A stretch of 64,000 bases of DNA from an uncultured Solirubrobacterales bacterium (GTDB lineage: Bacteria; Actinomycetota; Thermoleophilia; Solirubrobacterales; Solirubrobacteraceae), in contig CAVXDH010000002.1 in the NCBI GenBank assembly GCA_963760545.1, positions 551,699-615,698 of the forward strand, given 5' to 3'. The position numbers and the translations under genes are program-made. Positions 2,667 through 60,892 of this stretch are shown here, piece after piece (positions within the stretch are counted from its first letter, which is position 1; every line of letters starts with the position of its first letter). The notes below the pieces were generated by a model. It had not been told where the DNA came from. It worked only from the letters and a program-made list of their open reading frames with translations, and ran no database searches.

Positions 2667-3140
2667 ATGCTAAATCGACTGCGCCAGCGCGCATCGGATG
2701 AGGGTGGTTTCACGCTCATCGAACTCCTGGTAGTCATCTTGATCGTGGGCATTCTTGCCGCGATCGCGATTCCTGCGTTCCTGAACCAGAAGAGCAAGGC
2801 CAGCGACTCGAACGCCGAGACGCAGGTCCAGACCGCTCAGACCGCCGCTGAGACTTTTGCGACGGAAAACGAAGGCAGCTACCTCAACATGACCATCGCC
2901 AAGCTTGAGGCGATCGAGCCGACGTTGAAAGAAGTAACCGCGGCCAAGCTCCTGGAAGACAAAGTGATCGGTGCCAAAGGCGAAGGTTACGAAGTTATCT
3001 CCGAAGCCCCGTCGACCGGCGATAAGTTCATCGTCAAGCGCACAGCCGAAGGCACGTTCGAACGGCCTTGCGAAGTCGCCAAAGAATCAAACCCCGGCGA
3101 TTGCAAACTCATCGGAAAAACGACCAAAGGCGAATGGTAG
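2667..3140 (+). CDS. pilA: type IV pilin (prepilin with class III signal peptide), copy 1
   Basis: The leader MLNRLRQRASDEGG is followed by FTLIELLVVILIVGILAAIAIPAF, with the G/F cleavage site and Glu+5. There is a C-terminal Cys pair (PCEV...GDCK) and the SD aaggagga upstream. Confidence 0.9.
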   Translation: MLNRLRQRASDEGGFTLIELLVVILIVGILAAIAIPAFLNQKSKASDSNAETQVQTAQTAAETFATENEGSYLNMTIAKLEAIEPTLKEVTAAKLLEDKVIGAKGEGYEVISEAPSTGDKFIVKRTAEGTFERPCEVAKESNPGDCKLIGKTTKGEW

Positions 3141-3248: not shown

Positions 3249-3412
3249 CTAAGCCTGAGCCCCCGCAATATCAACGTGAGATGCTTGGCCGTGCAACTGG
3301 GCTATCTGTGCATCTTGCTGGGCATGCGCTTGCATCGAGGCTCAAGTTTGAGCACGCAAACGCCGATCATTCGTCCATGCCTAACACAACCGCAACCTTC
3401 ACCGAGGTCCCA

Positions 3413-3886
3413 ATGCTAAATCGACTGCGCACTCGTGCATCCGGTGAGGGTGGTTTCACGCTCATCGAACTCCTGGTAGTTATTTTGATCGTGGGCATTC
3501 TTGCCGCGATCGCGATTCCTGCGTTCCTGAACCAGAAGAGCAAGGCCAGCGACTCGAACGCCGAGACGCAGGTCCAGACCGCTCAGACCGCCGCTGAGAC
3601 TTTTGCGACGGAAAACGAAGGCAGCTACCTCAACATGACCATCGCCAAGCTTGAGGCGATCGAGCCGACGTTGAAAGAAGTAACCGCGGCCAAGCTCCTG
3701 GAAGACAAAGTGATCGGTGCCAAAGGCGAAGGTTACGAAGTTATCTCCGAAGCCCCGTCGACCGGCGATAAGTTCATCGTCAAGCGCACAGCGACAGGCA
3801 CGTTCGAACGGCCTTGCGAAGTCGCCAAAGAATCAAACCCCGGCGATTGCAAACTCATCGGAAAAACGACCAAAGGCGAATGGTAG
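3413..3886 (+). CDS. pilA: type IV pilin, copy 2
   Basis: 157 aa, nearly identical to copy 1. The leader is MLNRLRTRASGEGG followed by FTLIELL. The longer ORF from 3200 was rejected. An in-frame ATG at 3377 derives from a pilD 5' remnant. Confidence 0.85.
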   Translation: MLNRLRTRASGEGGFTLIELLVVILIVGILAAIAIPAFLNQKSKASDSNAETQVQTAQTAAETFATENEGSYLNMTIAKLEAIEPTLKEVTAAKLLEDKVIGAKGEGYEVISEAPSTGDKFIVKRTATGTFERPCEVAKESNPGDCKLIGKTTKGEW

Positions 3887-3991: not shown

Positions 3992-4175
3992 ATGTCTCGG
4001 ACGCGGCGACGAACAGGAAAATGGCGGCGTGGTTGTCCTTTGCGGCAGCTTTACGTCGCCCCGTTACGTGTTAACGATCCGCTTCAAGGTGTCGCAGCGC
4101 TCATCGCGAACGCTCTTTGGGCGCCCGTTTGCACCAGCGCTCAAGTCCGAGCACGCAAACGCCGATCATTCGTCC

Positions 4176-4937
4176 ATGGGAGCCGCAACAGCAACCTTCA
4201 CCGGCGTATTTGGCGCGATCGTAGGATCGTTCCTGAACGTCGTCGTCTACCGGCTGCCCCGTCGCGAGTCGGTCGTCAAGCCCGCTTCGCACTGCACGAG
4301 CTGCGGCTCGACTTTGAAGCCCTACGACAAGGTCCCAGTCCTCTCGTGGCTGCTGCTGCGAGGCCGCTGCCGCAATTGCGCGGCGCCGATCTCCTCGCGC
4401 TACCCGATCGTCGAGGGGCTGTGCGCACTGCTGTGCGTCGCCGCGGTGCTCGCGGGCGGCTCGACCGCGACGGTCGTTCTCAACGTAGTGCTCATCCTGC
4501 TGCTCGTACCGATTGCCCTGATCGACCTCGAGCACCGCGTGATCCCCAACCGGCTGACCGCGCTCGGTGCCATATTGGCGCTCGGCATCGGGACAGCGCT
4601 TGACCCGAGTGGCGAGCCGGCACGTTTGATTGCCGGCGTCGCCGCCGGCGGAGCGTTGCTGCTCGCGGCGCTCGCCTACCCGGGCGGGATGGGCATGGGC
4701 GACGTGAAGCTGGCGGGCGCGATGGGCCTGTTCCTCGGTAGTGCCGTGGCGCCGGCGATGCTGATCGCGCTGCTGGCGGGCGTGTTCTACGGAGCGCTGA
4801 TTGGCGCACGCAAGGGCGCTCGCGCGGCGGCCAAGACGGCGATCCCGTTCGGCCCGTTCCTCGCATTCGGCTCGCTCGTCGCCGTATTTGCGGGTGAGCC
4901 GCTCGTGAACTTGTACACGACCAACTTCCTGCGCTGA
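4176..4937 (+). CDS. pilD: prepilin peptidase (A24 family)
   Basis: MGAATATFTGVFGAIVGSFLNVVVYRLP, the CTSCG...CRNC zinc motif, and GMGMGDVKLAGAMGLFLG with FGPFLAFG, the two catalytic Asp regions. Start taken at the internal ATG of ORF 3912-4937. Confidence 0.85.
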   Translation: MGAATATFTGVFGAIVGSFLNVVVYRLPRRESVVKPASHCTSCGSTLKPYDKVPVLSWLLLRGRCRNCAAPISSRYPIVEGLCALLCVAAVLAGGSTATVVLNVVLILLLVPIALIDLEHRVIPNRLTALGAILALGIGTALDPSGEPARLIAGVAAGGALLLAALAYPGGMGMGDVKLAGAMGLFLGSAVAPAMLIALLAGVFYGALIGARKGARAAAKTAIPFGPFLAFGSLVAVFAGEPLVNLYTTNFLR

Positions 4938-6286
4938 TGAGCCCCAAGGAGCGTGGACAGATGACCAACGACAGCCTCGACCTGCTCAGGCCCACGTCGA
5001 TCGTGGTCGATATTCCACCGGAGCCGCCCGCCGAGGAGGCCGGTGGAGATCCGGCACCGACACCGAGCCGCAAGATGCCCAAGCTGCGCAAGCCGAGCCT
5101 CAAATTCGAGCGGAGAGCCCGCTCTGGCGGCGGTCCGACGCTCGTCGGGCTGGATATCCAGCCCGGCTATGTGACCGCTGTGCAAGCCCGCGTGAACGGC
5201 TCGATCCTTGTGCAGCGCGCGGCTGGTGCGCCATTGCCGCCCGACACCGTCCGCGAGGGCGAGGTGCTTGATGGCAATGCGCTTGCCGAGACGCTGCGCG
5301 AGATGTTTGGCGAGTCGCGTCTTGACAAGCGCGTGCGCGTCGGCGTTGCCAACCAGCGCACGGTGTTGCGCACGCTCGAGTTGCCGCCGCTCACCGACGG
5401 CAAGGAGCTCGACGCCGCCATCCGCTTCCAAGCCGAGGACCAGATTCCGATGCCGCTCGAGAACGCCGTGCTCGACTATCACGTGCTCGGTATCAACGAA
5501 ACTCCAGCCGGCCCACGCCAGCGCGTGATCGTCGTTGCCGCACAGCGCGACATGGTCACGCGACTGCTCGGTGCGGTCCGTGAGGCGGGACTGCGCCCCG
5601 AGGCGGTCGACCTGTCCGCGTTCGCCTTGATCCGCTCGCTGCATCGCCTCGACGAGCAGCACGCCGGGCGCGTGCTCTATTTGAACGTAGGCGGACTCAC
5701 GAACATGGCGATCGCCGAAGGCAATGTGTGCCACTTCACCCGTGTTGTCAGCGGAGGCCTCGAGTCGATGGCGACCGCCATCGCCGAGCGTCACGGGATC
5801 GCGCTGCTGAAGGCTCGCTCGCTGCTCGCCTCGGTCAATCTGGAAGCCGCCAAGCCGGAGGTGCAGTCTTATGAGGCTCCCGTCGTGGAGCACCTCGACG
5901 CAGAGCTCTCCACGACCTCGCTCGATCCGTCCGCGTCTGCGCTCGAGTACTCCACAACGCCCATCGAGGACCCTGCGACGCTGCTTGAGTCACCCGGAAT
6001 CGATGTGCGTCCCGTGCTCTCCGGCGGTGTGCGCGAAATCGCCGGCGAGGTGCGCAACTCCCTTGACTTCCACCGCTCCCAGGATGGCGGAGGAGAGGTC
6101 TCAACCGTCATTCTGAGTGGCCCCGCGCTACAAATCGCGGGCTTTGCCCGAGCTTTGCAGAGCGAGCTCGGCGTGCCCGTTGTGCCGCAAACGGTCGGCA
6201 TGATCAACGAAGGCTCGGCCGGCTCGGTGTCTCCCGAGCACCTTGCCGTCGCCACGGGCCTTGCGACCGAAGAGGCACCGCGATGA
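4937..6286 (+). CDS. pilM: type IV pilus assembly ATPase-fold protein PilM
   Basis: LVGLDIQPGYVTAVQA, an actin-like fold signature. Positioned directly before the pilN/pilO-like genes and overlaps the pilD stop. Confidence 0.75.
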   Translation: MSPKERGQMTNDSLDLLRPTSIVVDIPPEPPAEEAGGDPAPTPSRKMPKLRKPSLKFERRARSGGGPTLVGLDIQPGYVTAVQARVNGSILVQRAAGAPLPPDTVREGEVLDGNALAETLREMFGESRLDKRVRVGVANQRTVLRTLELPPLTDGKELDAAIRFQAEDQIPMPLENAVLDYHVLGINETPAGPRQRVIVVAAQRDMVTRLLGAVREAGLRPEAVDLSAFALIRSLHRLDEQHAGRVLYLNVGGLTNMAIAEGNVCHFTRVVSGGLESMATAIAERHGIALLKARSLLASVNLEAAKPEVQSYEAPVVEHLDAELSTTSLDPSASALEYSTTPIEDPATLLESPGIDVRPVLSGGVREIAGEVRNSLDFHRSQDGGGEVSTVILSGPALQIAGFARALQSELGVPVVPQTVGMINEGSAGSVSPEHLAVATGLATEEAPR

Positions 6287-17467: not shown

Positions 17468-19555
17468 ATGAGCGCACCGGCTGAGAACGACAACGGGCCT
17501 CTCGTGCGCGGTCCGCGACTGCTTGAGCGGATCGACGGTCCAGCCGATGTGCAGGTGCTCTCAGAGGATGAGCTGGCCCAGCTGGCGCAGGAGGTGCGCG
17601 AGCACATCATCGACACGGTCGGTGAGATCGGCGGGCACTTCGGCGCGAACCTGGGCACGTGCGAGCTGGCGGTGGCACTGCACTCGCTGCTCGATTCTCC
17701 GCGCGACAAGATCCTGTGGGATGTGGGCCATCAGGCCTACCCGCACAAGATCCTGACGGGACGTCGCGCGCAACTGCACACGATCCGCCAGTACGGCGGG
17801 CTGGCGCCGTTTTGCTCGATCGCGGAGTCCGCGCACGACATCATGGGCGCCGGTCACGCCTCGACCTCGATCGGGTATGCGGTCGGTTTGAAGGAGGGGA
17901 TGCGCCACCTGGACGATGAGGCGTCGGGCGGGAAGGTCGTAGCGGTGATCGGTGATGGCGCGATGACCGGGGGAGTGGCATTCGAGGCGATCGGCCAGGC
18001 GGGCGGTCTTGGAACGCCGATGGTGGTGGTGCTCAACGACAACGGCATGTCGATCGCTCCGAACGTGGGTGCCCTGTCTCGATATTTCAACCGCGTGCGG
18101 CTGAATCCCAAGCTGTGGCATGCGCGCTCGGGCGTGGAGGGTGGTCTCGCCCGACTGCCGGGCAGCATCGGCGCGGCATTCGAGCGCCTTGGCCCGCAGT
18201 TGAAGGAGTCGATCAAGGCGTTTTGGGCACCGGGCCTGTGGTGGGAGGAGCTTGACTGGGCCTATATGGGCGTGATCGACGGCCACGACGTGCGCGCGCT
18301 ACGGGTTGCGCTGCGCGAGGCGCTCGCTGCCGAACGCCCCGTGGTGGTGCACATCGCGACGGTCAAGGGCAAGGGCTTTGCGCCCGCCGAGGACGGCGGC
18401 CTGGAGGGGATGGAGAAGTGGCACGCAGCCAAGCCGAAGTCGATCTTGAATGGGGTGCCCACCCTTCCGCCGACGTCGCCGCCGGCACGGCCCACTGCGG
18501 CCTCCTCGACAGCCGCCAACGGCAAGCCGGCGCAGGATGGAGAAGCGCGGATGGTGGGGCAGGGTGGGGGAGCGCCTCAATACACGCAGGTGTTTGGCGA
18601 GGCACTTGTGCGCGAATGCGAACGCGACGAGCGGGTCGTTGGGATAACCGCGGCGATGAACTCGGGTACGGGCTTGAACATCTTGCAGAAGGCTATGCCG
18701 GGTCGGTATTTCGATGTCGGTATCGCCGAGCAGCAGGCTATTTTGTTTGCTGCTGGCCTCGCGCTTGGAGGGGTCAAGCCGGTGGCGGCGATCTACTCGA
18801 CTTTCCTGCAGCGCGCGTTCGATCAGATCGTGCACGACGTGTGCTTGCAGAAGCTGAACGTCGTGTTCGCAATGGATCGTGCCGGCCTGGTCGGCGACGA
18901 CGGGCCGACCCATCACGGCGCTTTCGACATCGCCTATCTGCGCTGCCTGCCCAATATCGTGTTGATGGCGCCACGTGACGAGGCACTGCTGGTGCACATG
19001 CTGCACACGGCGCTTTGCTACGACGACGGGCCGGTCGGGTTGCGCTACCCGCGCGGCGAGGGCGTCGGCGTGGCGCTGCCCGAGGCGCCACGCGCGATCC
19101 CGATCGGCAGAGGTGAGATCTTGCGCGAGGGAGGCGCGAGCGGGCCGGTCGGCGGACGCGTTGCGTTGGTCGGCTATGGGGCGGGGGTTGGCAAGGCGAT
19201 TTCTGCAGCAGATCTCTTGGCTGGCGATGGGATCGCCGTGACAGTTGCCGATGCGCGCTTTGCCAAGCCGATCGACACGGGCTTGATGGCTCAACTGGCT
19301 GCCGAGCACGACCTGCTCGTGACTGTCGAGGAGGGCGTGCTTGCGGGCGGGTTCGGCTCGGCGGTGTGGGAGGCTCTCAACGAGACGGGCGTGGCTCCGC
19401 CGCGGATCCTGCGCGTGGGGCTACCCGACCGCTATGTGACCCACGGCAAGCCCACGTTGCTGCATGAGGAGGTTGGGTTCACCGGCGAGCGCATAGCTGA
19501 GCGCGTGCGTGGGGCGATCACCGACCGTCGCTCCGCGGCGATCGAGACAAGCTAA
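17468..19555 (+). CDS. dxs: 1-deoxy-D-xylulose-5-phosphate synthase
   Basis: GGHFGANLGTCELAVALH, GDGAMTGGVAFEA and ILWDVGHQAYPHKILTGR. 695 aa including a Pro/Ala-rich linker insert. Confidence 0.95.
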   Translation: MSAPAENDNGPLVRGPRLLERIDGPADVQVLSEDELAQLAQEVREHIIDTVGEIGGHFGANLGTCELAVALHSLLDSPRDKILWDVGHQAYPHKILTGRRAQLHTIRQYGGLAPFCSIAESAHDIMGAGHASTSIGYAVGLKEGMRHLDDEASGGKVVAVIGDGAMTGGVAFEAIGQAGGLGTPMVVVLNDNGMSIAPNVGALSRYFNRVRLNPKLWHARSGVEGGLARLPGSIGAAFERLGPQLKESIKAFWAPGLWWEELDWAYMGVIDGHDVRALRVALREALAAERPVVVHIATVKGKGFAPAEDGGLEGMEKWHAAKPKSILNGVPTLPPTSPPARPTAASSTAANGKPAQDGEARMVGQGGGAPQYTQVFGEALVRECERDERVVGITAAMNSGTGLNILQKAMPGRYFDVGIAEQQAILFAAGLALGGVKPVAAIYSTFLQRAFDQIVHDVCLQKLNVVFAMDRAGLVGDDGPTHHGAFDIAYLRCLPNIVLMAPRDEALLVHMLHTALCYDDGPVGLRYPRGEGVGVALPEAPRAIPIGRGEILREGGASGPVGGRVALVGYGAGVGKAISAADLLAGDGIAVTVADARFAKPIDTGLMAQLAAEHDLLVTVEEGVLAGGFGSAVWEALNETGVAPPRILRVGLPDRYVTHGKPTLLHEEVGFTGERIAERVRGAITDRRSAAIETS

Positions 19556-19636
19556 GAGCAGAGAGAGACATTGCTCTGGCCGGCACATGGCGTGGCGGGC
19601 CTGATCGCATGTGCTATTTGAGCCGAGATGCTGTTC

Positions 19637-19708
19637 CTGTCGGCACATGTGCCGACAGGCCGGACCGTACATGTACGGTCCGGGACCGAGCCGCATGCGG
19701 CTCGGTCT
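19637..19708. repeat. three directly abutting perfect 24-nt palindromes, each centred on CATG
   Basis: cctgtcggcaCATGtgccgacagg (19637-19660), ccggaccgtaCATGtacggtccgg (19661-19684) and gaccgagccgCATGcggctcggtc (19685-19708). Each was checked to equal its own reverse complement. Confidence 0.95.
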
Positions 19709-19835
19709 TCCCTGAAGATAATGAGGGAGGACCGCAGCGCCGAGGGGTTAATGAAACGACCCGCTGGGGAGGCGGGCCGTTTCGGGGAGGAGGGATGCTG
19801 CTGTACTTCGGGTCGAGAGGAATCATGCATCACAC

Positions 19836-19849
19836 GAACGCATGTTTGT
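19836..19849. promoter_or_regulatory. GAAC-N4-GTT LexA-box-like motif inside a 28-nt imperfect palindrome
   Basis: CGAACGCATGTTTG lies within catcacacgaac gcat gtttgtgtgatg (19829-19856). It shares the 12-nt core CGAACGCATGTT with the site at 42929. Confidence 0.3.
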
Positions 19850-20005
19850 GTGATGTCGATCACATATGGGCGATCTCTATATAAGCGACATAGTAGATAT
19901 CCCGAATTCTTTGGTTTGCTCGAACTTGTGAGGTTCGTCGCAACTCGCAGCCGCTACGCGGAGACCCTGCCAAGCGCTCCGAGCGGCTACCGTCTTATCA
20001 CCGCG

Positions 20006-20809
20006 ATGGCCACCAAGCAACGTCTGGACACCCTGCTGGCCGAGCGCGGCCTATTTTCCTCGCGTACGCGGGCCGCTGCATCGGTGATGGCGGGCGAGGT
20101 CACGGTTGGTCGCGATGGCCGTCGTGCCGCCAAGCCCGGCGAGATGGTCGCGGTGGATACTGAGCTTGCGGTGCGCGAGCGCGCCCCATTTGTCTCGCGT
20201 GGTGGGATCAAGCTCGCCAACGCGCTGGACGCGTTTGGAATCGAGGTCGGGGGGCGGCAAGCGTTGGACGTGGGCGCCTCGACCGGTGGCTTCACCGACT
20301 GCCTGCTGCAGCGCGGCGCCGCGCACGTCATCGCGGTTGACGTCGGCTACGGGGATCTCGACTACGGGCTGCGCACCGATTCGCGCGTGACGCTGCTGGA
20401 GCGCACGAACGCTCGTTCGCTGACACGCGAGATGCTTCCCTATGCACCCGAGCTGGTGGTGCTCGACGTGTCGTTCATCTCACTGCGCAAGGTACTTCCG
20501 TCAGTGCTCGAATGCTTGGCCGACCGTCATGACGTGCTCGCGCTCGTAAAGCCACAGTTCGAGGTGGGACGCGAGCGAGTCGGCAAGGGCGGCGTGGTCC
20601 GCTCGGCAGCGGATCGGCGCACCGCGCTCGTGGACGTCGGGGTCAGCGCTCTAGAGCTCGGCGCCACGGTGCTCGGCTATCGCTCATCTGGCCTGCCCGG
20701 CCCCAAGGGCAACCTCGAGACGTTCGTGTGGCTTGCCGAGCCCGGTCGCGGTACTGGCGCCGATGGGGCGCACGACATCGAGCTTATGACACTGGGGGTA
20801 GAGCCTTGA
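20006..20809 (+). CDS. tlyA: TlyA family rRNA 2'-O-methyltransferase (hemolysin A-like)
   Basis: An S4 domain (RLDTLLAERGLFSSRTRAAASVMAGEVTV) and an FtsJ-like SAM motif (ALDVGASTGGFTDCLLQRGA). Start at the internal ATG, since the upstream part of the ORF crosses the palindrome array. Confidence 0.85.
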   Translation: MATKQRLDTLLAERGLFSSRTRAAASVMAGEVTVGRDGRRAAKPGEMVAVDTELAVRERAPFVSRGGIKLANALDAFGIEVGGRQALDVGASTGGFTDCLLQRGAAHVIAVDVGYGDLDYGLRTDSRVTLLERTNARSLTREMLPYAPELVVLDVSFISLRKVLPSVLECLADRHDVLALVKPQFEVGRERVGKGGVVRSAADRRTALVDVGVSALELGATVLGYRSSGLPGPKGNLETFVWLAEPGRGTGADGAHDIELMTLGVEP

Positions 20810-47030: not shown

Positions 47031-47104
47031 GGGCCCGTAGCTCAGTTGGTTAGAGCCGCCGACTCATAATCGGTTGGTCCCAGGTTCGAGTCCTGGCGGG
47101 CCCA
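47031..47104 (+). tRNA. tRNA with CAT anticodon (Met, or more likely lysidine-type Ile2)
   Basis: Acceptor gggcccg/cgggccc, anticodon loop ctCATaa. The anticodon stem and variable loop (gccgaCTCATAAtcggt tggtc) resemble E. coli ileX as I recall it. No encoded CCA. Confidence 0.9.
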
Positions 47105-47106
47105 CT
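47062..47106. repeat. attL core: 45-bp direct repeat (3' part of the tRNA)
   Basis: actcataatcggttggtcccaggttcgagtcctggcgggcccact, identical to 62978-63022. Confidence 0.9.
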
Positions 47107-47107
47107 C

Positions 47108-47137
47108 AAGAATCCTGCATAATTATGCGGGATTCTT
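47108..47137 (+). terminator. hairpin immediately after the tRNA / attL core
   Basis: aagaatcctgcata at tatgcgggattctt forms a 14-bp stem with one G-U. A related hairpin follows the attR core. Confidence 0.45.
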
Positions 47138-47273
47138 GGGTAGGAGGTAGTGCGTACCGTCCCACGACGCGCTTTGGGGCCACTCTTGGGGCCACCCGCC
47201 CCAGAAAGATGTCCCAGCCGCTGACCATCAGTGCGGTTGTTCGGGCGCCCGGTCATTCGCGCGCGTAGTAGCG

Positions 47274-48128
47274 CTACTGTGGCTTTGTCGCGTAGGCGCC
47301 GATGATTGTCGGCCAGAGCGAGATGCGTCCGACCGGTCCGGTGTCGGCACGCAGACGCTCGGCGAGGGTGTCGATGTCCACTTCCTCCTCGGTTGCCACA
47401 CCGGCAGCCACGATCCCGGGCAGCAAGCTGCGGGCATAGTCAACGGCCTCGGAGACTGCCTCCTCACCAACGGCAATCGCGACTTCGCTGTCGAGGTCCA
47501 GGCTGGGCCGCAGGCCGGCTTGCGCGAACGTCGCGGGCAACCGCATTCCCATGTCCGGCTGCGTGCCCAGCCCGCCGAAAGCGCCATCAATCCACTCGCT
47601 GAGCTGCTCAGACGCCGGAGTGTGCGGCCAGGACACCAAGAACCTCTGCGGTATCGCAGACCCCACGCGCATGCACATCTCCGCGAACACGACCACCCCA
47701 CCCGGGCGTACATGGCGTGCCGCGGCCCGCACCGCCGCGGGCGGGTCACCCTGGTACATCAGCACGAGCCGCCCGACCAACGCATCAAACGGGCCACCGG
47801 CAAGCTCGACCTCGCGAAAGTCACCGCACACGAACTCGACGTTCTCGATGCCGGCCTCGGCCGCCCTCTGACGCGCCCTCTCAAGCGCCTGCTCATCACG
47901 CTCGACCCCGACCACCGAACCGTCGGCGCCGACTAGCTCTGACAGAAGTAAACTGACATCGCCCGGCCCGCAGCCCACATCGAGGACCCGCATCCCGGGC
48001 TCGATCCCCGCGCGCGCCAGCAGACGGCGCGTGAACGGCGCATACATGTCGGCCTGGCGGGCCAGCCGCTCGTGCTCACCTTCGTTGGATGCACTCAACG
48101 CATACCCAGGGTCTCCCGTGGCTGACAC
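47274..48128 (-). CDS. class I SAM-dependent methyltransferase (small-molecule type)
   Basis: RVLDVGCGPGDVSLLL...VVGVERDE...DALVGRLVLMY. No DNA-methyltransferase motifs (no DPPY/NPPY, no PCQ). Confidence 0.85.
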   Translation of the reverse strand: MSATGDPGYALSASNEGEHERLARQADMYAPFTRRLLARAGIEPGMRVLDVGCGPGDVSLLLSELVGADGSVVGVERDEQALERARQRAAEAGIENVEFVCGDFREVELAGGPFDALVGRLVLMYQGDPPAAVRAAARHVRPGGVVVFAEMCMRVGSAIPQRFLVSWPHTPASEQLSEWIDGAFGGLGTQPDMGMRLPATFAQAGLRPSLDLDSEVAIAVGEEAVSEAVDYARSLLPGIVAAGVATEEEVDIDTLAERLRADTGPVGRISLWPTIIGAYATKPQ

Positions 48129-48351
48129 GCCGGGAGAGTCTACGCACGCCCGTCAGCCACCGTGGGGCACCCTGCGTCCTCGAAGCGGATACGGCTGCGG
48201 CCTCAGCGCAGAGAAGCAGCAGTCGGCTACGAAACCGTGAACGAGGCGCGCGGTCTACTCGATGCCTGCGCCAGCCCGCTCGCTCGTTCGAGCGCACACC
48301 CACGAAACTCGTCCAGGAACAGACCCGACTAACTAATCCGAGTTCGCAGAA

Positions 48352-48365
48352 CGAACACCAGTTCG
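48352..48365. promoter_or_regulatory. LexA-box-like inverted repeat CGAAC-N4-GTTCG upstream of the TIR gene
   Basis: aCGAACaccaGTTCGt has perfect 5+5 arms and lies 27 bp before the ATG at 48392, in a locally AT-richer stretch. Confidence 0.4.
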
Positions 48366-48391
48366 TCCTCGGTGCTTGATAAACCTAATAG

Positions 48392-49204
48392 ATGGATCGA
48401 GCTGCCTACGAACGTGCGGTCCGGCAGGCGGAAGCCGAACGTCGTCGGCAGATCGATGCGTACAACAGGCAAGTGGATGAGTTCAACCGCCGGGAACGGC
48501 AGCGCGTTGAACGAGAGATCAATGAACACAACCGCCGGGCTGAGCAGCACAACCGGGCAGAAGAACAGCGCGTGCGTGAGGAGGAGCGTCGCGTCAACGA
48601 GCACAACCGGCGCGTCCATCAGCAGAACCAGCGGGCTATCGGCGATTACAACCGCAACATCGGTCAGGTCAACGCCCACAACACAGCCGTGATCGCCGAC
48701 CTCCAGAACCGGCTCCGCGCCGCCACGTCAGGCACTCGCTACACGGTCGATGAGGAGGTGCTTGCTAACCGCATTCAACGGGCGGTCGCACCGCTTGACG
48801 AGCGAGAGTGGGACGTGTTCCTCAGCTACGCGCGGATCGACGGTGGCGAAGCAGGGGACATCCTGCGACAGCAGCTCGAAAGTCTCGGAGTGAGGGTCTG
48901 GTTTGATGAGATCGCGATCCAGCCAGGTAAAAGCCAAGCTCGCCAGATGGACCAGGGGCTACAGAAGGCGCGCGCGGGGGTCGTGCTCCTCACGCCCGCC
49001 TATGTGGCCGGACGCTTCTGGACCGAGCGCGAGCTTGGTGCTCTCCTCCACAAGGAGACGCTGATCCCAGTGCTCGACGGCGTGACCTTCGAGCAGGTGG
49101 CAGAGTACAGCGGCATCCTCCCCGATCTTGCAGGTTTCGAGACGGCACGGGACCCGCTCGAAGCCATCGCGCAGAAGATCGCAGCTGCTGTCCTAACCGG
49201 CTGA
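48392..49204 (+). CDS. TIR-domain protein with N-terminal Asn-ladder coiled coil
   Basis: The C-terminal EWDVFLSYARIDGGEAG...VWFDEIAIQPGKS...VVLLTPAYVAGRFWTERELGALL is a TIR fold including the W-x-x-E motif. The N-terminal 105 aa is charged and helical, with recurrent (E/Q)HNRR. Confidence 0.85.
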   Translation: MDRAAYERAVRQAEAERRRQIDAYNRQVDEFNRRERQRVEREINEHNRRAEQHNRAEEQRVREEERRVNEHNRRVHQQNQRAIGDYNRNIGQVNAHNTAVIADLQNRLRAATSGTRYTVDEEVLANRIQRAVAPLDEREWDVFLSYARIDGGEAGDILRQQLESLGVRVWFDEIAIQPGKSQARQMDQGLQKARAGVVLLTPAYVAGRFWTERELGALLHKETLIPVLDGVTFEQVAEYSGILPDLAGFETARDPLEAIAQKIAAAVLTG

Positions 49205-49314
49205 CCACGCCCACGTTGGCACACGCCATCTCCAAGAGCAAAGTCGAGCCTGTTGCTGTGGTTGTGCGCCGCCGTGGCTCCTGCGTAATCCGGGCGTCGG
49301 CCAGCAGAGAGATC

Positions 49315-50163
49315 CTACTCGCCGCTCTTATCAGGGGCGCGCAGATACTTCTCGGGCATCGCCACGACTCTCACGTCACGCTGCGCCGCCCGGAGCCTCA
49401 TTCCAGCGTCGCCAGTCACGAGCGACACCTTGTTGGGCTTCCCCATTAGCTGTTCAAGTTCGGTGCAGACGGATATGATTGAGCGGTCCGCATCCGGGTC
49501 GCGCGGGTCATCCGAGAACGCCAGCTGGACCTCGATCGTCACGTCCTCCCGCACTCTGCCCGGCGAGCCACCAGGCCCGACATCTCGCTCGAGATTTGTG
49601 AGCGCGGCGCGTGCTCTGCCGCGCACCTTGTCCTTGCCCGTGTACTTGAGCTCGTCGAGCTCGTCAACGACGGTGATCGGCAGGAACAGGCGCACAGGCT
49701 CGACACCGACGATCTCCCTCCAGTTCACCTGCTCGGGTGGCAGGAAGTGCAGTAGAAGATGGGTGTCCAAGACTGCGATATGTCCGGCTGCTTCCGTCGC
49801 TCGCTCGATGCGGCGCTTCAAGTCCTCTGCAACACGCTCCAGGGTGGCTTTCTGGAGTCTGATCTCGCTTTCGATCGGATGCGCGGGCCATGGAGTCTGC
49901 GGGTGCGCTTCTCGGATCGCCCAATAGCCCCGAGTGTGCAGGAGCGAGTCGATTCGCAGCTCGTCGGTGAAGTTCCCGAGCTGGCTTTCGGCCTTGTCGA
50001 CCCAGGTCATGTAGTCCTGCTGTCTCCGACGAAACGTCTCCCAGACATCGGTGGAGACGGCGGACTTGCCGGGCAGGTTACGCAGCTCGATTAGGAGCTC
50101 GTCCAGGATCTCCAGGGCTCGCTCGGGCGTCGCACCGGGCTTGAGCGGGAGGCGGCTAGCCAT
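49315..50163 (-). CDS. PIN-like nuclease domain protein with N-terminal helical domain
   Basis: Acidic quartet candidates are VLDTHLLL, TVVDELDELK, DADRSIISV and LVTGDAGMRLRA. Start at the internal ATG at 50163. Confidence 0.65.
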   Translation of the reverse strand: MASRLPLKPGATPERALEILDELLIELRNLPGKSAVSTDVWETFRRRQQDYMTWVDKAESQLGNFTDELRIDSLLHTRGYWAIREAHPQTPWPAHPIESEIRLQKATLERVAEDLKRRIERATEAAGHIAVLDTHLLLHFLPPEQVNWREIVGVEPVRLFLPITVVDELDELKYTGKDKVRGRARAALTNLERDVGPGGSPGRVREDVTIEVQLAFSDDPRDPDADRSIISVCTELEQLMGKPNKVSLVTGDAGMRLRAAQRDVRVVAMPEKYLRAPDKSGE

Positions 50164-50217
50164 GCCGCACAGCGTACTGGCGCGCAAAGTAGCCGAAGCG
50201 TGAGGGACAATTGATGG

Positions 50218-50793
50218 ATGCCCTTCGCGCTTCCCGGCTACAACCTCGCGTGCGGTCAAGTTGTCTGGTGGGTGACGAAGAATCTCGCAAGGGAAAGCGA
50301 CCCGGTGCTCAGCCAGATCAAGGTAGTGCCGATGAAGGGCACCGTGTCGAGCGTCGTGGAGACGCGGGACGACATCGCGCTTGACCTTCCAGCGGAGCCC
50401 GTCGGATTCGAGCTTGGCGTCAAAGCGGAGGATGTGCGCGATGGGAACTTCGAGGCTCTACAGGTGAAACTCGTCGAGGCCGCTGACGGGTACGCCGAGC
50501 AGCTAGCGAAAATGCTCTACGGGAACCTCGGCAAGATCACCACCGCCACCGGGAACACCCTTGACGCGGGAGGGCGCCCGCTCACCTTCGCGATGCTGTA
50601 CGAGATGCTCGACAAGATGGAATGGAGACTTGATGAGAACGACGAGCTGTCAACACCATCTCTGGTCATGCACCCAGACACGGCGTCGAAGCTCCCCCAG
50701 CCGACGCCCGAGCAAGTGAAGATGATCGAGGAGTTGAAAGCCCGCAAGCTGGAGGAGTTGCTTGCTAAGCGACGCCGTCGCCGCCTATCTTGA
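50218..50793 (+). CDS. hypothetical protein (first gene of two-gene operon)
   Basis: ORF with no recognisable motif and an acidic core ending in a KRRRRR tail. An alternative start at ATG 50332 would give 153 aa. Its 3' end overlaps the next ORF. Confidence 0.4.
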   Translation: MPFALPGYNLACGQVVWWVTKNLARESDPVLSQIKVVPMKGTVSSVVETRDDIALDLPAEPVGFELGVKAEDVRDGNFEALQVKLVEAADGYAEQLAKMLYGNLGKITTATGNTLDAGGRPLTFAMLYEMLDKMEWRLDENDELSTPSLVMHPDTASKLPQPTPEQVKMIEELKARKLEELLAKRRRRRLS

Positions 50794-52300
50794 GTCCGTC
50801 TCCGAGCGGGCGTTTGACGAGCCTTTGATGGCTCTGTTGCGGGCGCGCGGGTTTGCGTCCGTGCGGCTGGTCCACGGCGCGCGCGAGTTCGGGAAGGACG
50901 TGATCGCCCGACGCGATGGCGAGCAGTGGGGCTTCCAGTCGAAGGCGGGTGACATAGGGCAACCTGAGTGGAGAACGCTCACCGGCCAGCTTGACGAGCT
51001 GCGCGTTGTCAACCTCGGACATGGAGCGTTCAACACAGAGCTGCCGCGCCGCCCAGTGTTGGTCACGACCGGCCGGCTCGTGGGCAACGCGCCGGAGCTT
51101 TACGGCGATTACAACAAGCGGGCCAACGAGAGAGGCGAGCCCGAGCTGGAGCTGTGGGATCGCGACATCCTGCTCGGCCACCTCGCGAGTGATCCCGAGT
51201 CGGTGCTGAGCGGGTCGATCGACGGCCAGCTCATGTCGATCTTGGGCGCTGCCGAGGCGCGTTCGGTGACGATGCCAGAGCTGGAGGTGTTCTCGCGTCG
51301 GTGGATGGCGTGGGAGCCGGAGCGACTGGCCGGGCTCGGGGTGATAGAGGCAGCGTTGGTCTGCGAGAAGCTACGGGGCGTTGATCGACTCGACCTTGCT
51401 TGTCATCTTGCGTTGTGCCTCGTGCGCGCGGTGTGGGCCTCGGGAGCGACAAACCTGCCCGATGACATGTCGGCCACCGCGGCAAGATCACTGTTCGAGG
51501 CGTATGCCCGCGCGCTGTGGGAGAAGTGTGGCGACGAGCTGCTGGAGCACCCGCTGCTCAATGACATCGAGTTCGGGGGATGGGTGACGTACCCCGTGCG
51601 CTGCGTGAGGCTGGCCGAGATCCTTGGTTTGCTGGCGCTGCTGGTGAAGGAGTCCGACCCGGAGCTGTGGGGGGAGATCTCGCGGTGGCTGGTGACGCTC
51701 TGCGAGAAGCAGCCCGGCGTAGCCCATCCGATCAGCGACCAGTATGCCGTGAGCGTCATCCCCGCCGTCCTCGCGCTCGCGAGCGTCGATCGAGTAGCGG
51801 CGGAGACGCATCTCAAGAGATGCACCATCTGGCTGTGCGATCGTTACGAACGCGACGCGCTCGGCCTCGCGCGCGAAGACGCGACTTCCGATGAAGAGGT
51901 CGAATATCTGATCGGCGGCCCGTTCGAAAGCGTGCAGCTCGAACGGCGCCCAGACTCACTCATAGCTCCCGTGCTCCTCGACCTCGCCGCTGCGCTCGGA
52001 TCGACAGACTTGTACGGCGACATTTACAACGACGTGTTGGCCGTGCGTATCTGCCCGCAAGTGCTCCGCCTCGCTGACGGGCCAGACCAGTATTCCCGCA
52101 CCGGCAATGGAAATCGCATCGATCCAAACGTCGATTTCGCAGAATCACTGGCTGACGAAGGGATCGTCGCGCCGCACTACAACGACAAGGCAGGGGACAG
52201 CCAAGTCGCGAGCGGGCACGCATGGGACCTGCTCGCCATCGGATCGGCGCTGCGCGATCGGTACTACGTCCGCGCGCTGGCGTCGCTCGCGGACGAGTAG
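50762..52300 (+). CDS. Mrr-type (PD-(D/E)xK) restriction-endonuclease-like N-domain fused to ~370-aa helical domain of unknown function
   Basis: The N-terminus (ERAFDEPLMALLRARGFASVRLVHGAREFGKDVIARRDGEQWGFQSKAG...VLVTTGRLVGNA) matches the Mrr_cat pattern D-x(n)-(D/E)-x-K, here GKDVIA...QSK. The rest is unassigned. Confidence 0.55.
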   Translation: MLSDAVAAYLESVSERAFDEPLMALLRARGFASVRLVHGAREFGKDVIARRDGEQWGFQSKAGDIGQPEWRTLTGQLDELRVVNLGHGAFNTELPRRPVLVTTGRLVGNAPELYGDYNKRANERGEPELELWDRDILLGHLASDPESVLSGSIDGQLMSILGAAEARSVTMPELEVFSRRWMAWEPERLAGLGVIEAALVCEKLRGVDRLDLACHLALCLVRAVWASGATNLPDDMSATAARSLFEAYARALWEKCGDELLEHPLLNDIEFGGWVTYPVRCVRLAEILGLLALLVKESDPELWGEISRWLVTLCEKQPGVAHPISDQYAVSVIPAVLALASVDRVAAETHLKRCTIWLCDRYERDALGLAREDATSDEEVEYLIGGPFESVQLERRPDSLIAPVLLDLAAALGSTDLYGDIYNDVLAVRICPQVLRLADGPDQYSRTGNGNRIDPNVDFAESLADEGIVAPHYNDKAGDSQVASGHAWDLLAIGSALRDRYYVRALASLADE

Positions 52301-52625
52301 ACCGCGCTCGTGGTCTCCGACTGGCCCACCGGATACGTGCGCGAACTTACGAGCGAGACCAATAGTGAATGCGGCGTGATACCGGGTAGCGGAGTGCGCG
52401 GACTGCCGCGCCAGATGGCTTACTTGTCGTCCAGTGGGCAAACGGAGCGTCGCGATGATTAGACGTTTGCCTCCCACCCGTAAGCGCCAGCATCCCGTCG
52501 TCCAAGGACAGCGCGCTCGCTCACACCTTGGCTCGCTCCGAGACCCGCTTGGGGTAGTTTCTATGCGTGGCGTGCATGCTCGGTAAGAGGTTGGTCCTCG
52601 CGGCCCAGAGCGCGGGGCGTTGTAG

Positions 52626-53759
52626 GTGAGTGACCAGCTGCTTTGCTGGGATCGCGCCTGGCTGCGGTTTGCCTGCATGAGCGGCCTGGTCGTGTTGATT
52701 GCAGCGCTTGGCCTCATTCTCGCTGCCTGCGGTTCCTCCGCAGGGACGGCGACAGCGAGCGTAGTACGCCTGTCCCCGTCCTGCATACCGCCCGAATTCA
52801 GCAAGCGGGGGTTGCTTGGACCCCGGCGGCCGCTCCCCAAGGCGCTCTCGACTCCGCTGGACGCCGCGATCTTGTCCAGCTTCACCATCTTTCGCAGACC
52901 CCGGCTACCGAGCGATGAGCCTCCGGGGCTGAACCTGGCGGCCAACGGACTGGGCCGCGAGCTCTACAAGACCTACAAGCTCTCGAGCTACTACCCCGCC
53001 TACGTCCGCCAGCTAACGAGGCTCCCCGACGGTAGACGCTATTTCGTGATCCCGGCGTACGGACGGCCCGAAGCAGTCGTCCCGGCCCACTGTCTGGCGG
53101 GCGGGGAGCGTGCTCGGCGCGCACTGGTCGAAGAGCAGCACCGGCGCCTGGTTGAGCCGGTCGACTGCATCATCGAGATGGGAGGCGGTGAAAACGAACC
53201 TCCCCAAGGATGCGAGCCGTTCGCTGCAATCGACGAAGGTGAGCGGATATTCCAGTCGGACGACTTGTACAAGGAACCGACCGTCGAACTGGTGCCCGAT
53301 GGTGTCGCTTCGGTTCGGATCGAATACAGGGAAACGTCCGCGATCACCGTGCCGGTCAGCGAAAACACTTTCCTGTTTACACCACCACCGCCGACGCCTC
53401 GTGTCGAGGCTGAACTGAAACGGCTGGAACGGCTGCAACGGATGGAGCCCGTGATCGTGACGACGCACCCCACCACGGCCCAGCGTCCTACGGCCCAACG
53501 TCGCCGTATCACGTTGCAGTGGGACAAGACTGTGGATGAAACCGAGCCGACGCGGATCGAATGGCTCGACAGCGCCGGTCGCCTAGTCCGCGCCCTCAGC
53601 CCTCCTACCGCCGAAAGCAGCTCTGCTACCTCCGTTGGCAACCTCGATGCTCCCCTCGAAGGCAGCTTCACCCTCCAGTCATCTAGGTCATCGCCAAGTG
53701 ACCGTCGGAGTGCTTCGGAGCACCGCAGCATGACTAGTCCTGTTCACGGGCATCGCTAG
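52626..53759 (+). CDS. putative secreted lipoprotein of unknown function
   Basis: The signal peptide has a lipobox (LVVLIAALGLILAACGSS). No other motif. An alternative start lies at 52677. Confidence 0.5.
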   Translation: MSDQLLCWDRAWLRFACMSGLVVLIAALGLILAACGSSAGTATASVVRLSPSCIPPEFSKRGLLGPRRPLPKALSTPLDAAILSSFTIFRRPRLPSDEPPGLNLAANGLGRELYKTYKLSSYYPAYVRQLTRLPDGRRYFVIPAYGRPEAVVPAHCLAGGERARRALVEEQHRRLVEPVDCIIEMGGGENEPPQGCEPFAAIDEGERIFQSDDLYKEPTVELVPDGVASVRIEYRETSAITVPVSENTFLFTPPPPTPRVEAELKRLERLQRMEPVIVTTHPTTAQRPTAQRRRITLQWDKTVDETEPTRIEWLDSAGRLVRALSPPTAESSSATSVGNLDAPLEGSFTLQSSRSSPSDRRSASEHRSMTSPVHGHR

Positions 53760-53836
53760 CGCTTTTGCCGGCAGAGCGGGCGCGTCCGGGCGCCGCGACT
53801 AAACCGGCCGCCCTGGCGTCTACCATCGATTGGTCG

Positions 53837-54844
53837 ATGAGTACCAACGCTTGGAGAAAGAACCACACCGTGAGCGCCGGGCTCGTGCGGCGCTTCGCTG
53901 GTACCACGCCCGGTGGCAAGCAGGTCACGGTGCATCACCGACTGAAGGGCCAATACGACGAAGGCCCAAACGGCGTCGGCTACGAGTTCGACTACTGGGG
54001 CCCGCCAGACCTCGCCGAGAAGGTCGAGGGAATCCTCGCCCGCATTGAGTCTGATGCACTCTCCTTGTTCAGGAATCTTGAGTCTCGCTGGCCCCTGACG
54101 GACGGGGATCGCATAGCGCTTGCACGGTTCGTATCCCTGCACATCGTTCGCACGCGAGCCTTCACGACGTTTCTGGGCGAGGTCGGCAAGGATGCGGCGA
54201 TTGATGCGCTCGGCGAGACTGCAGCCAAGCACAACCTCGACGAGGCCGGGATCGCTCCCTACGCCGAGCTGCTCAAGAGTCCGCACATGCACGCTCAGCA
54301 GGTCATTCGACAGGTGAACCGCGTCGCAAGCCCCTTGCTGAGTATGCACTGGACGATCATCGAGTTCGCCGAGGACCTGCTCATAGGCTGCGATCAGCCG
54401 GTCATCCTGATCCCGTGGGCGAGACCAGACCGGCTTGGGCCGGAGTCCGCGATCCCGCCGTTCGGCATGATGGGCACGTTCGAGGGGCGCTTCACATTGG
54501 ACCCGCGTCACGCGCTTTTGATGACGTGGGTCGAGAGTGCCGATGAGCCATGGATCATCGGCGACCGCATACAGGCGAGCCACATCAACGCCTCCGTCAA
54601 GGCGCTCGCGGTCGATGAATGGTTTCGCCGCCCGGGGACCAACCCGCCGTTCATCTCAGCGCCGCTACTTGAAGAACGAGTGGACCCGATCGCCCCGACT
54701 CTCTTTCGCGGGTATACACCGCAGCGTGCCGTCGCGTCGCCCCGGCGGCGGGTTGCCGAACAGACCGTCAAGAAGATGACGCTAGAGCAGACCCCAGACG
54801 CCGAGGTGCGCTGGGTGCGGTACCAGACTCAGCGTGCGGCTTGA
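53837..54844 (+). CDS. DUF4238-like protein
   Basis: The N-terminal KNHTVSAGLVRRFAG resembles the H-x-V/I-P-x-F-x-L-R-x-F start I associate with DUF4238. Unverified. Confidence 0.45.
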   Translation: MSTNAWRKNHTVSAGLVRRFAGTTPGGKQVTVHHRLKGQYDEGPNGVGYEFDYWGPPDLAEKVEGILARIESDALSLFRNLESRWPLTDGDRIALARFVSLHIVRTRAFTTFLGEVGKDAAIDALGETAAKHNLDEAGIAPYAELLKSPHMHAQQVIRQVNRVASPLLSMHWTIIEFAEDLLIGCDQPVILIPWARPDRLGPESAIPPFGMMGTFEGRFTLDPRHALLMTWVESADEPWIIGDRIQASHINASVKALAVDEWFRRPGTNPPFISAPLLEERVDPIAPTLFRGYTPQRAVASPRRRVAEQTVKKMTLEQTPDAEVRWVRYQTQRAA

Positions 54845-55007
54845 CCCATGCCGCCGAGGTCGGCATCGCTCCCTCGCCGACACTCGCGGGCGTACCGTCG
54901 CAGCCTGTCGCCGTACCGCCTCGGTTTGAGCAGGCACGTCGTCGGCCCGAGACGAGATGCGCGATTGGGACGACACGCGGTAGTTGCGACCTGAGACAAC
55001 CTATCGG

Positions 55008-57656: not shown

Positions 57657-58059
57657 CACATGAAGTGATGACCGTGAGAAGGCCGAAACGGCCACCGACT
57701 TGCTCACACAGTCGTCACACAGCGCACGCACTCTTGTGCATGTTGTCTGTCGTGGCTGTTTGTCGTGGCTGTTTGGAGCGTCGCGGGCGATGCGGCGCGG
57801 AGGCGACCTTGCAGGCGATGGGTGGTCGTGTGCTCGGCGGAACTCGGGTCAGGTCGGTGGGTAGAGGATGCGCCGTCGGCGCTTGTTAGAAGCGTCTGGA
57901 CAACTGGCCTTTGGCGTTTTGTCAAGTTTGGTGTTGGCAGGGGTGTTCGTCCGTGCTGTTGGCGCGGTTGTTGGGTGCTGCTGGCTGTGCTCGTTGCTGG
58001 TTGCTGGGAGCGGTGAGATGGCACGCCGTGGCCTGATTAGGTGCGCGTGCGGCCTTGGT

Positions 58060-59560
58060 GGCCAGGGGCCTTATGCGGTCTTTGGCGTGCGCAGGGGCCC
58101 TTGTTGCGGGCGCGAGCTCGAGGGCTCGAAATTGCGGATGCGGGCTTGCGCTCGGGTGTGTCGTGAGACGACAGCCGTGGCTGGGTGTGGGCTAGTGGTT
58201 CAGGGCAGGGGCGACCTTTGCGGGGTTGTAGTCGACGTCGCTGTTGACCATGCGCCAGATCACGCGCAGCAGCCGGTTCGCGCACGCGATCACGGCTTGT
58301 CTGGCGGTGAGCCTTTGGCGCAGTGCGCGGTAAAGCGCCCGGAAGGCAGGGCACGCTTTGATGATGTGTCTGGCGGCGTGAAAGGCGGCGTCGCGCAGCT
58401 GGTAGCGGCAGCGCTCGGAGATCTTGCGTTTCGGGGTGCTTTGCCCGGAGTCCCTTGCGATTGGTGCGCAGCCGCCGAGCTTGCCGAGCGCGCGGGCCGA
58501 GCGCAGCCTGCGGACGTCGCCCGCGGCGGCGAGAAGAAGCGCCCGGTCGAGTTCTCTCAGACCCGGCAGGCTGTCCAGGCGTTGCGCTCCGGGAAGTCGG
58601 GGGTAGAGGTGCAAGAGCTCTTCCTCGAGCATTTCGAGCTGGCCTTCGACGAGCGCACGGCGCCGCATCAGCCGCTGCAGCCTGGCGGCGTAGGCGCCTC
58701 TGGCAGCGCGGTATCCGACCGGGCGGCTGGTCTTCTCGATCAGCTGCTTGATCTTGTTGTGCCCGATATGGCGGCCGGGTGCGGCTGCCCGGACTCGACG
58801 CTCAAGCTCTTGCGCGCCGAGCCTGGTTGCACGTGCGGGGTCTCCGCCGGTGACAGCGATCACGGCGCGGGCGGTGACGCCCCGCTCGCCGCCACGGAAG
58901 GTCTGCAGGAACTCGGGCCAGATCGTGTCCAGACAGGTCTTGACCGCGCCGCGAAGCCGACGGCGCTCGCGGCGCAGCCGCAGCCGCTCGAGACACAGCG
59001 CGTGCGCGCACGCCACCGCGGGCGTGTCGGGCCGCACGAGATGGGAGTAGTCAACGGCGCCGGCGAGGGTGCGGGCATCGACACGATCGGACTTGGCGCC
59101 CGTGATGTCCCGCGCGCCGCGCAGCTTCGCGACGGTCGCCGCGTGAACCTGGCGCACCTCAAGGCCCTTTCCGGAAAGCTCCTCCGCGAGTGCCTGCCAG
59201 CGCGTAGCTGTCGGCTCGATGATCACCAGGACGCGACCCTCAAGCCCGGCAAGCTCTCCGAGGAACCCGTCGATGCCATCGCGGGAATGAGTGAACCGGA
59301 GCCGCCGGTCGGTCCCATCCGGTGCCCGCAACACCGCTTCGTGCGCCGCGCGGCGCCCCAGATCGATGCCGACTGTCCACGCGGGCTCGCCCGCGTGGAC
59401 AGTCGCAGTCACGTCCGTCATCCTCTGCATCCAGCCTCCTCCGACAGTGGTTTAAGCCCGCACACACCTGGGCCAATGAGCTACCCGAAGAGGAGGCTGA
59501 CCTACGTCACGGCGGCCACCAACGCACCCCAACTTCCGCGCCAACCTAAATTGCGTGGCC
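58060..59560 (-). mobile_element. IS110-family insertion sequence (ends approximate)
   Basis: Contains the transposase ORF. This family lacks clear terminal inverted repeats and no second copy is present, so the ends cannot be fixed from this window. Confidence 0.35.
58192..59430 (-). CDS. IS110-family transposase
   Basis: The N-terminal DEDD domain is WTVGIDLGRRAAHEAVL...VIIEPTATRW. The C-terminal Transposase_20-like region is LDSLPGLRELDRALLLAAAGDVRRLRSARALGKLGGCAPIARDSGQS. Confidence 0.85.
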   Translation of the reverse strand: MQRMTDVTATVHAGEPAWTVGIDLGRRAAHEAVLRAPDGTDRRLRFTHSRDGIDGFLGELAGLEGRVLVIIEPTATRWQALAEELSGKGLEVRQVHAATVAKLRGARDITGAKSDRVDARTLAGAVDYSHLVRPDTPAVACAHALCLERLRLRRERRRLRGAVKTCLDTIWPEFLQTFRGGERGVTARAVIAVTGGDPARATRLGAQELERRVRAAAPGRHIGHNKIKQLIEKTSRPVGYRAARGAYAARLQRLMRRRALVEGQLEMLEEELLHLYPRLPGAQRLDSLPGLRELDRALLLAAAGDVRRLRSARALGKLGGCAPIARDSGQSTPKRKISERCRYQLRDAAFHAARHIIKACPAFRALYRALRQRLTARQAVIACANRLLRVIWRMVNSDVDYNPAKVAPALNH

Positions 59561-60856: not shown

Positions 60857-60892
60857 AGCTGCCGCACCTGTTCGGAGCGGACGGTCGGCCGC

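Follow-up and report, generated by a model that had tools for sequence, protein, structure and literature searches.

Three perfect palindromes, each 24 nt long and centred on CATG, abut without a spacer between dxs and tlyA in the genome of an uncultured Solirubrobacterales bacterium (Solirubrobacteraceae, Thermoleophilia), and the question that this locus raises is what kind of element they form and what keeps them symmetric. The stretch of DNA that we analysed (64 kb, G+C 65%; hereafter the window) holds one copy of each unit, and each unit equals its own reverse complement. The block occupies 19636-19707, with unit starts at 19636, 19660 and 19684. Unit 1 (19636-19659) reads CCTGTCGGCA CATG TGCCGACAGG, unit 2 (19660-19683) reads CCGGACCGTA CATG TACGGTCCGG and unit 3 (19684-19707) reads GACCGAGCCG CATG CGGCTCGGTC; none has a strand of its own. 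An earlier note on this DNA, which gave the position as 19637-19708, was right about the three perfect palindromes but placed them one base too far to the right. On the plus strand a leader, GAGCCGAGATGCTGTT (19620-19635), abuts unit 1 on its 5' side and is the sole part that gives the array an orientation. Further upstream, 19576-19603 (CTGGCCGGCACATG GCGTGGCGGGCCTG, no strand) can be read from the sequence as a decayed extra copy of unit 1 that has lost its palindromy; it is homologous to an extra copy in the relatives L162 and L280, and to unit 1 of L163 (CTGGCCGGCACATGTGCCGGCCAG). The stretch upstream of the trio had been described as degenerate half-copies, which holds for 19576-19603 but not for 19620-19635, the latter being the leader, common to a second array in L163.

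Chance is a poor explanation for the trio, as had been claimed from the first inspection. The composition-based expectation for three abutting palindromes is ~3 × 10^-16, and the window contains one other perfect palindrome with arms of at least 10 nt, at 5146-5165; a single palindrome with arms of at least 12 nt was reached in 5 of 200 first-order Markov simulations of the window. Each unit folds into a 10-bp stem with a 4-nt loop (CAUG in RNA, CATG in DNA), at -17 to -19 kcal/mol as RNA and -11 to -12 kcal/mol as DNA, and the 92-nt block gives the same fold from either strand, so that the three 10-bp stems with CAUG loops that had been expected on both strands were recovered. The minimum-energy fold of the spacer also contains a weak, imperfect hairpin on the right flank (19704-19733, plus strand; GGTCTTCCC...GGGAGGACC), which probably lies outside the element, as it is poorly conserved (flank identity 0.47) and missing from the paralogous array of L163.

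The position of the trio between two plus-strand genes, dxs and tlyA, agrees with the domains and homologues of the orthologues. The dxs ORF (1-deoxy-D-xylulose-5-phosphate synthase; 17468-19555) has its stop codon 80 nt before the array, and its orthologues in L162, L163, L164 and L166 carry DXP_synthase_N, Transket_pyr and Transketolase_C domains and align at their 3' ends. The tlyA gene (rRNA 2'-O-methyltransferase; 20006-20809) encodes 267 aa; its homologues have S4 and FtsJ domains, and the best of them, 75-91% identical, come from Solirubrobacteraceae metagenome genomes. A 393-aa ORF (19628-20809) reads through all three palindromes into tlyA, whose true start is at 20006, and this longer "TlyA" is, judging from homologues of only 266-267 aa, an artefactual high-G+C extension. 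Some database TlyA entries of 317-333 aa appear to have similar false extensions. Several ORFs cross the trio, owing to the high GC, and a coding role was considered and rejected: an array of the relative L005 has units of 22, 24 and 26 nt, which break frame, and the flanks carry indels between genomes. The translated trio has no words in common with 5.8 billion proteins.

Between the trio and tlyA lies a small-RNA-like element on the minus strand (19749-19845), with a CCUCC-rich motif GCAUCCCUCCUCCCC (19784-19798), a terminator stem (19753-19783) and then a U-run. The element is 95% identical among close relatives, and nhmmer matches it at 26 loci in Solirubrobacterales and Thermoleophilaceae, each time upstream of tlyA. 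One pair of its 12-bp stem is G·U in 10 of 16 sequences and would be A·C if read on the plus strand, which indicates an RNA made from the minus strand. We predict a small RNA whose CCUCC motifs resemble anti-Shine-Dalgarno sequences; it corresponds to no Rfam family (best match ar14, E = 9). In many relatives it lies directly 3' of a small minus-strand membrane-protein gene that is missing in the window's clade. Because dxs is on the plus strand and the small-RNA-like element on the minus strand, the trio sits between converging units, and the U-tailed terminator hairpin of the minus-strand element is 45 nt away from it. Closer to tlyA, a TGTGA-N6-TCACA palindrome (19849-19864, no strand) has the shape of a CRP/FNR- or Rex-type operator and is kept upstream of tlyA in most of the Solirubrobacterales loci examined. 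The spacer between dxs and tlyA also houses a mobile element of ~7 kb with IS1595-family transposase genes in L162 (2700-9850) and L281 (1-2690); its terminal inverted repeats, measured by eye, are roughly 100 bp, and its insertion point is exactly TGTGACGTCGATCAC, the TGTGA-N6-TCACA site, repeated on both sides in L162.

To compare the trio among genomes, we collected relatives via TlyA homology. The trio is found at the same site in L161, L162, L163 and L280, which together with the window make five genomes. Identity across the five is 0.89 in the trio against 0.32-0.47 in its flanks. All of the 150 stem cells (150/150) are paired, six pairs are altered on both arms, and the sole non-Watson-Crick pair is one terminal U·G in unit 2 of L161. 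The units differ in how they vary: in unit 1, four outer stem pairs differ among genomes, each time on both arms; in unit 3, two stem pairs occur in three different Watson-Crick states; and unit 2 shows no variation apart from the terminal U·G of L161. In their inner 4-5 pairs units 1 and 3 are, like unit 2, unvarying among genomes whose tlyA third codon positions differ by 24-36%. The covariation score of the trio was reached in 0 of 500 shuffles, and when the partners were slid as a control, pairing collapsed to 23-39%. In the neighbouring minus-strand terminator, one-sided changes outnumber two-sided changes (13 vs 10), against 1 vs 12 in the trio (Fisher p = 0.005), and when the paralogous copy from L163 is added, 11 of 20 pairs are altered on both sides and none on one side. 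These alignments show that what is maintained is intrastrand base pairing, the arms being free to change if both do. Since one-sided changes are nearly absent from the trio, compared with many G·U pairs in the terminator 45 nt away, the pairing is shown by the same comparison to be strand-symmetric and Watson-Crick only, and the hairpins would be equally possible on either strand, as RNA or as single-stranded DNA. Uniqueness to this locus and lack of conservation had been named in advance as grounds for doubting a function; arrays are present at other loci and the trio is kept in four relatives, which favours function or constraint. Judged by its conservation, the trio is real and under constraint.

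The trio is absent from L279, L164, L166, L002 and L001. In three of these, L279, L164 and L001, the TAA of TTAAATG closes the dxs ORF, directly at the terminator of the small RNA. Because dxs in these three runs straight into that terminator, the trio is not needed to end dxs, and because dxs in relatives meets the terminator without it, the trio can be regarded as an accessory insertion. The interval from the dxs stop to the small-RNA terminator (19556-19748 in the window) is, by this comparison, highly plastic: it measures 0 nt in L001, L164 and L279; in L166 and L002 it is filled by 70-90 nt of unrelated sequence, and in the five array-bearing genomes it spans 130-215 nt, array included. 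A neighbour-joining tree of tlyA places the five trio-bearing genomes together, with L279 adjoining. In L165 the right flank of the array is present (L165 1-40) and the contig ends ~10 nt from the expected unit 3; this close relative of the trio-less L164 seems to have the insert, which, given its absence from L164, implies either a loss or more than one gain. The end of the L165 contig beside the array suggests that short-read assembly breaks at palindrome arrays. In the window, L162 and L280 alike, decay of the additional unit 1 upstream has been asymmetric, and hence the perfection of palindromes is not automatic at this locus. Presence and absence among close relatives, along with a paralogous copy that has the same leader, show the array behaving, in sequence terms, as a small non-autonomous insertion. 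Neither a target-site duplication, nor clean insertion boundaries, nor a transposase was identified at the arrays, and we infer their mobility only from presence and absence and from one paralogous pair.

The paralogous copy, a second array with two units at 16882-16928 of L163, lies where two genes, for a response regulator and a histidine kinase, converge. An ungapped alignment matches it to the leader and the first two units of the dxs arrays, with which it has in common the CCGA(G)ATGCTGTT leader (here CCTCCGAATGCTGTT) and the outer arm bases; eight further stem pairs differ, all of them compensated. One of its units has a TATG loop with the stem intact, which means that the stem does not require the centre to be palindromic. 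At the corresponding site in the window two ORFs end 2 nt apart with no insert, which makes the second array an insert of roughly 95 nt. The leader precedes the dxs arrays of the window, L162 and L163 as well as this separate two-unit array, and in a fuzzy search of all loci it was found beside arrays only, the remaining matches being noise in coding sequence. A third array is present in L005, a more distant member of the Solirubrobacteraceae (TlyA 66%), where four abutting CATG-centred perfect palindromes of 24, 22, 26 and 24 nt begin 12 nt after a sigma-factor gene, with co-directional neighbours; L087, whose sigma C-terminus is 98.7% identical to that of L005, is without the array. Thus three independent array loci are known in about 580 kb. 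All three are extragenic and start 12-80 nt after a stop codon, two of the three lie in a converging context, and 20 of the 21 units have a CATG loop.

CATG stands out among self-complementary tetramers as a palindrome centre. Of the 1448 CATG sites in 580 kb of Solirubrobacterales DNA, 17 are the centres of perfect palindromes whose arms measure at least 8 nt, and CATG is the centre of 17 of the 31 perfect palindromes with 8-nt arms in these relatives; the other 15 self-complementary tetramers are the centres of 0-4 palindromes each, even though ten of the 15 occur more often than CATG does. Wherever two strong hairpins abut and have one loop sequence in common, they belong to the CATG type. 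The units themselves do not recur in the 64-kb window or in the 580 kb of relatives, save in orthologues and one diverged paralogue. The arrays may form a lineage-restricted class in Solirubrobacteraceae, with 2-4 abutting units of 22-26 bp, a GC-rich stem of ~10 bp and a CATG loop, a proposal which, taken jointly with the barrier role discussed below, we believe and doubt in equal measure. Two other palindromes of the window look like chance or coding sequence: the perfect 20-nt palindrome CGGGCTGGATATCCAGCCCG at 5146-5165, inside a long ORF, and a CATG-centred 24-mer with one mismatch at 54539-54562, within a DUF4238 ORF; neither looks like a member of the array class.

Searches of wider collections returned no counterpart. 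Two scans of viral contigs for three GCATGC or ACATGT centres at the spacing of the array gave 99 and 13 stretches, with no palindrome array among them; the spacer is unmatched in plasmid and phage collections; and no description of such palindromes was found in the literature on Actinobacteria, Solirubrobacter or Conexibacter. The idea of a landing pad for IS110 or IS200/IS605 elements finds no support, since the IS110 copy of the window (58192-59430) has flanks without CATG palindromes; the IS1595-bearing insertion in L162 and L281 lies in the TGTGA-N6-TCACA site, a palindrome other than the trio units. The region of the window that holds the IS110 copy is probably an integrated mobilisable island of about 16 kb (47031-63051): the 3' part of a tRNA gene (47031-47104) recurs at 62978-63051 (88%), and the interval between the repeats codes for a tyrosine integrase, a TrwC relaxase and an IS110 transposase, as well as for TIR, PIN, Mrr and DUF4238 proteins that look like defence cargo. 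Elsewhere in the window there are direct repeats of 300 nt (2658-2957 and 3404-3703, 96% identity) and of 86 nt (3319-3404 and 4118-4203, 80% identity); an ORF at 2667-3140 has an N-terminal methylation (pilin-type) motif, and the repeats have the look of pilin-like paralogues in tandem.

Hairpin arrays in which the stems are unrelated but a single loop motif is common to all, as in the trio arrays, are also known from protein-sponge RNAs of the CsrB/RsmZ type. Those, however, are RNA genes read from one strand, which have a promoter and a terminator of their own and tolerate G·U pairs, whereas the pairing of the trio is strand-symmetric and a promoter is not evident. A small structured RNA, which had been among the options first raised, has lost ground: the scarcity of G·U pairs speaks against a one-strand RNA gene, and at the gathering score no Rfam family matches the trio, with only chance-level overlaps (E = 3.1 and 7.3) when E values up to 10 are allowed. 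Closer in behaviour are the REP and BIME elements of Enterobacteria and Pseudomonas, known along with RAYT transposases and REPINs, which can fold in mRNA and have been hypothesised to act in mRNA stabilisation and in termination (PMC3733652, PMC2817692). Like the trio, these are short, GC-rich, clustered extragenic palindromes that occupy 3' untranslated or intergenic gaps just past stops and are variably present among relatives. Unlike the trio, they are imperfect palindromes, with one or a few repeated sequences per genome, in alternating orientation and with linkers, and each REP palindrome is tagged at one of its ends with GTAG or CGTC (PMC3733652). In the trio arrays every unit is perfect, the arms differ between units and drift between genomes with only the CATG centre and the length in common, and the units abut without a linker at a period of 23-24 nt. 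No GTAG or CGTC tag abuts a unit in the window, L161-L163 or L280, and no RAYT (Y1 transposase) gene is listed in the 6-21 kb around each array. Of the four options in the earlier note, a REP/BIME-like cluster nevertheless appears the best supported in behaviour, in that the arrays are extragenic, follow a stop codon, are gained and lost and have a paralogous copy, but the missing tag, the perfect palindromes and the unrepeated arms set them apart.

Our best reading is that the trio may be a REP/BIME-like, gained-and-lost array of strand-symmetric hairpins that acts as a hairpin barrier or 3'-end stabiliser, and we give this reading an even chance of being correct. Several other explanations account for part of the evidence. 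It is unlikely, in our view, that the array does no more than end dxs and the converging small RNA as a compound (tandem, bidirectional), factor-independent terminator, a role that had also been proposed. The converging position and the strand-symmetric pairing fit, in that the array begins 17-80 nt past the dxs stop between converging units and forms three stable hairpins on each strand, and converging units are found at two of the three arrays. Hairpin clusters near stop codons, within 80 nt, have been proposed as terminators, also without U-tails (Gupta and Pal 2021, PMC8355165), and the trio has their geometry, with at least two hairpins less than 15 nt apart and within about 80 nt of the stop, under a definition that is purely structural; several stable hairpins within 80 nt of a stop, between converging units and folding on both strands, are the likeness to hairpin-cluster and bidirectional terminators (PMC8355165). 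On neither strand, however, are the hairpins followed by a U-run or flanked by an A/U tract (the plus strand continues with TTCCC after unit 3, and the minus strand with AACAGC after unit 1), and a terminator consensus scan gave no site in the spacer. A canonical U-tailed hairpin adjoins the trio at 45 nt and directly follows dxs in the trio-less L001, L164 and L279, close relatives that manage without the trio. Furthermore, terminators need no particular loop sequence, and the conserved CATG loop is left unexplained. An origin through template switching, by which the palindromes would arise and stay perfect mechanically, without function or mobility, we consider improbable. Template switching can create and maintain perfect hairpins (PMC8794818), and quasi-palindromes are known to become perfect by it (PMC7202029, PMC8794818): what changes in one arm is copied to its partner, which gives apparent compensation without mismatched intermediates, as in the trio, where compensated changes include transversions, with no wobble intermediate, and one-sided states are almost absent. 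Quasi-palindrome correction is a mutational mechanism rather than an element, though, and it predicts neither a CATG centre, nor a 24-nt period, nor a leader, nor conservation above that of the flanks. The trio lies far above its flanks in conservation, with unit 2 invariant, the extra upstream copy has decayed asymmetrically in the same genomes, and enrichment is confined to CATG centres, even with GC-rich self-complementary tetramers being 4-8 times more frequent. An in-situ origin of the L005 array, for which a 10-nt word in common with the empty L087 site was considered, is not supported, as the test was not significant (reached by 108 of 2000 shuffles).

The symmetry of the units can also be read at the level of DNA. 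As double-stranded DNA, they could be three operators for dimeric DNA-binding regulators, or recombinase sites, and indeed the perfect dyad symmetry, the 4-bp centre, the ~24 bp typical of a dimer footprint and the conserved inner cores are what one would look for. We find this highly improbable, and the symmetric covariation of the arms led us to reject it: the outer arms change symmetrically, which duplex recognition does not require and which is rare in real operators, the half-sites are unlike among the three units, the unit with a non-palindromic TATG centre keeps its stem, and the arrays follow unrelated genes, at 3' ends and not at promoters. An explanation that we regard as rather unlikely, and that overlaps partly with our best reading, is that the units are hairpin or cruciform substrates of a structure- and loop-specific enzyme, such as an HUH/Y1-type transposase, a nickase or another hairpin-binding protein, which recognises or cuts CATG and copies the arrays to new sites, making them non-autonomous mobile DNA with no RNA role. 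Strand-symmetric, Watson-Crick-only pairing, a self-complementary CATG centre that is near invariant and is strongly and specifically enriched among palindrome centres, the insertion-like presence and absence at three loci and the leader common to two arrays of one genome all point this way. Against it, no transposase of the HUH/Y1 kind lies near any array in the 6-21 kb read around each, neither target-site duplications nor clean insertion boundaries are seen, the arms are not copies of a master sequence, and the REP-type tag is absent. Taken a step further, the arrays could be non-autonomous mobile DNA of a novel kind, fixed in nothing but stem length and CATG loop and copied or cut by a hairpin- and loop-specific enzyme whose action, or template switching coupled to it, keeps the units perfect while the arms drift, so that the family is defined by structure and not by sequence; we see this as a possibility, though a rather unlikely one.

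Under the preferred reading of the array as a hairpin barrier or 3'-end stabiliser, the trio of the window would sit between the stop codon of dxs and the converging minus-strand small RNA's terminator, and would be transcribed within the 3' ends of the converging transcripts. The three stable hairpins would form a two-way barrier that stops read-through and antisense transcription, and, by analogy with REP/BIME clusters in E. coli, they may block 3'-to-5' exonucleases. The array would then be an accessory element and not the primary terminator, and its perfect symmetry would be kept by selection for folding on both strands, possibly aided by template-switch correction between the arms. We take a barrier or stabiliser to be the most likely role, but several observations sit uneasily with it. 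There is no U-tract on either side, in a clade where canonical U-tailed terminators are in use; the genes that flank the L005 array are co-directional and not converging; and the array is dispensable in relatives. Moreover, the barrier leaves unexplained the near-invariant CATG loop (20 of 21 units), the invariance of unit 2 and the regular spacing of 23-24 nt.

The trio is an unusually clean natural example of strictly strand-symmetric compensatory evolution, and arrays of this kind make the question of RNA selection or DNA-level symmetrisation directly testable. They also have practical consequences, since they create false long ORFs, such as the 393-aa "TlyA" here, and probably break short-read assemblies, as at the contig end of L165; in high-GC synthetic biology they could act as compact two-way insulators. 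Solirubrobacterales are abundant in soil, yet there is almost no molecular genetics for them. In its structure the array is a new variant among extragenic palindrome clusters, from an understudied lineage, and CATG hairpin arrays apparently constitute a class undescribed so far. A structurally defined hairpin array that is gained and lost would be the first extragenic repeat class described for Solirubrobacterales.
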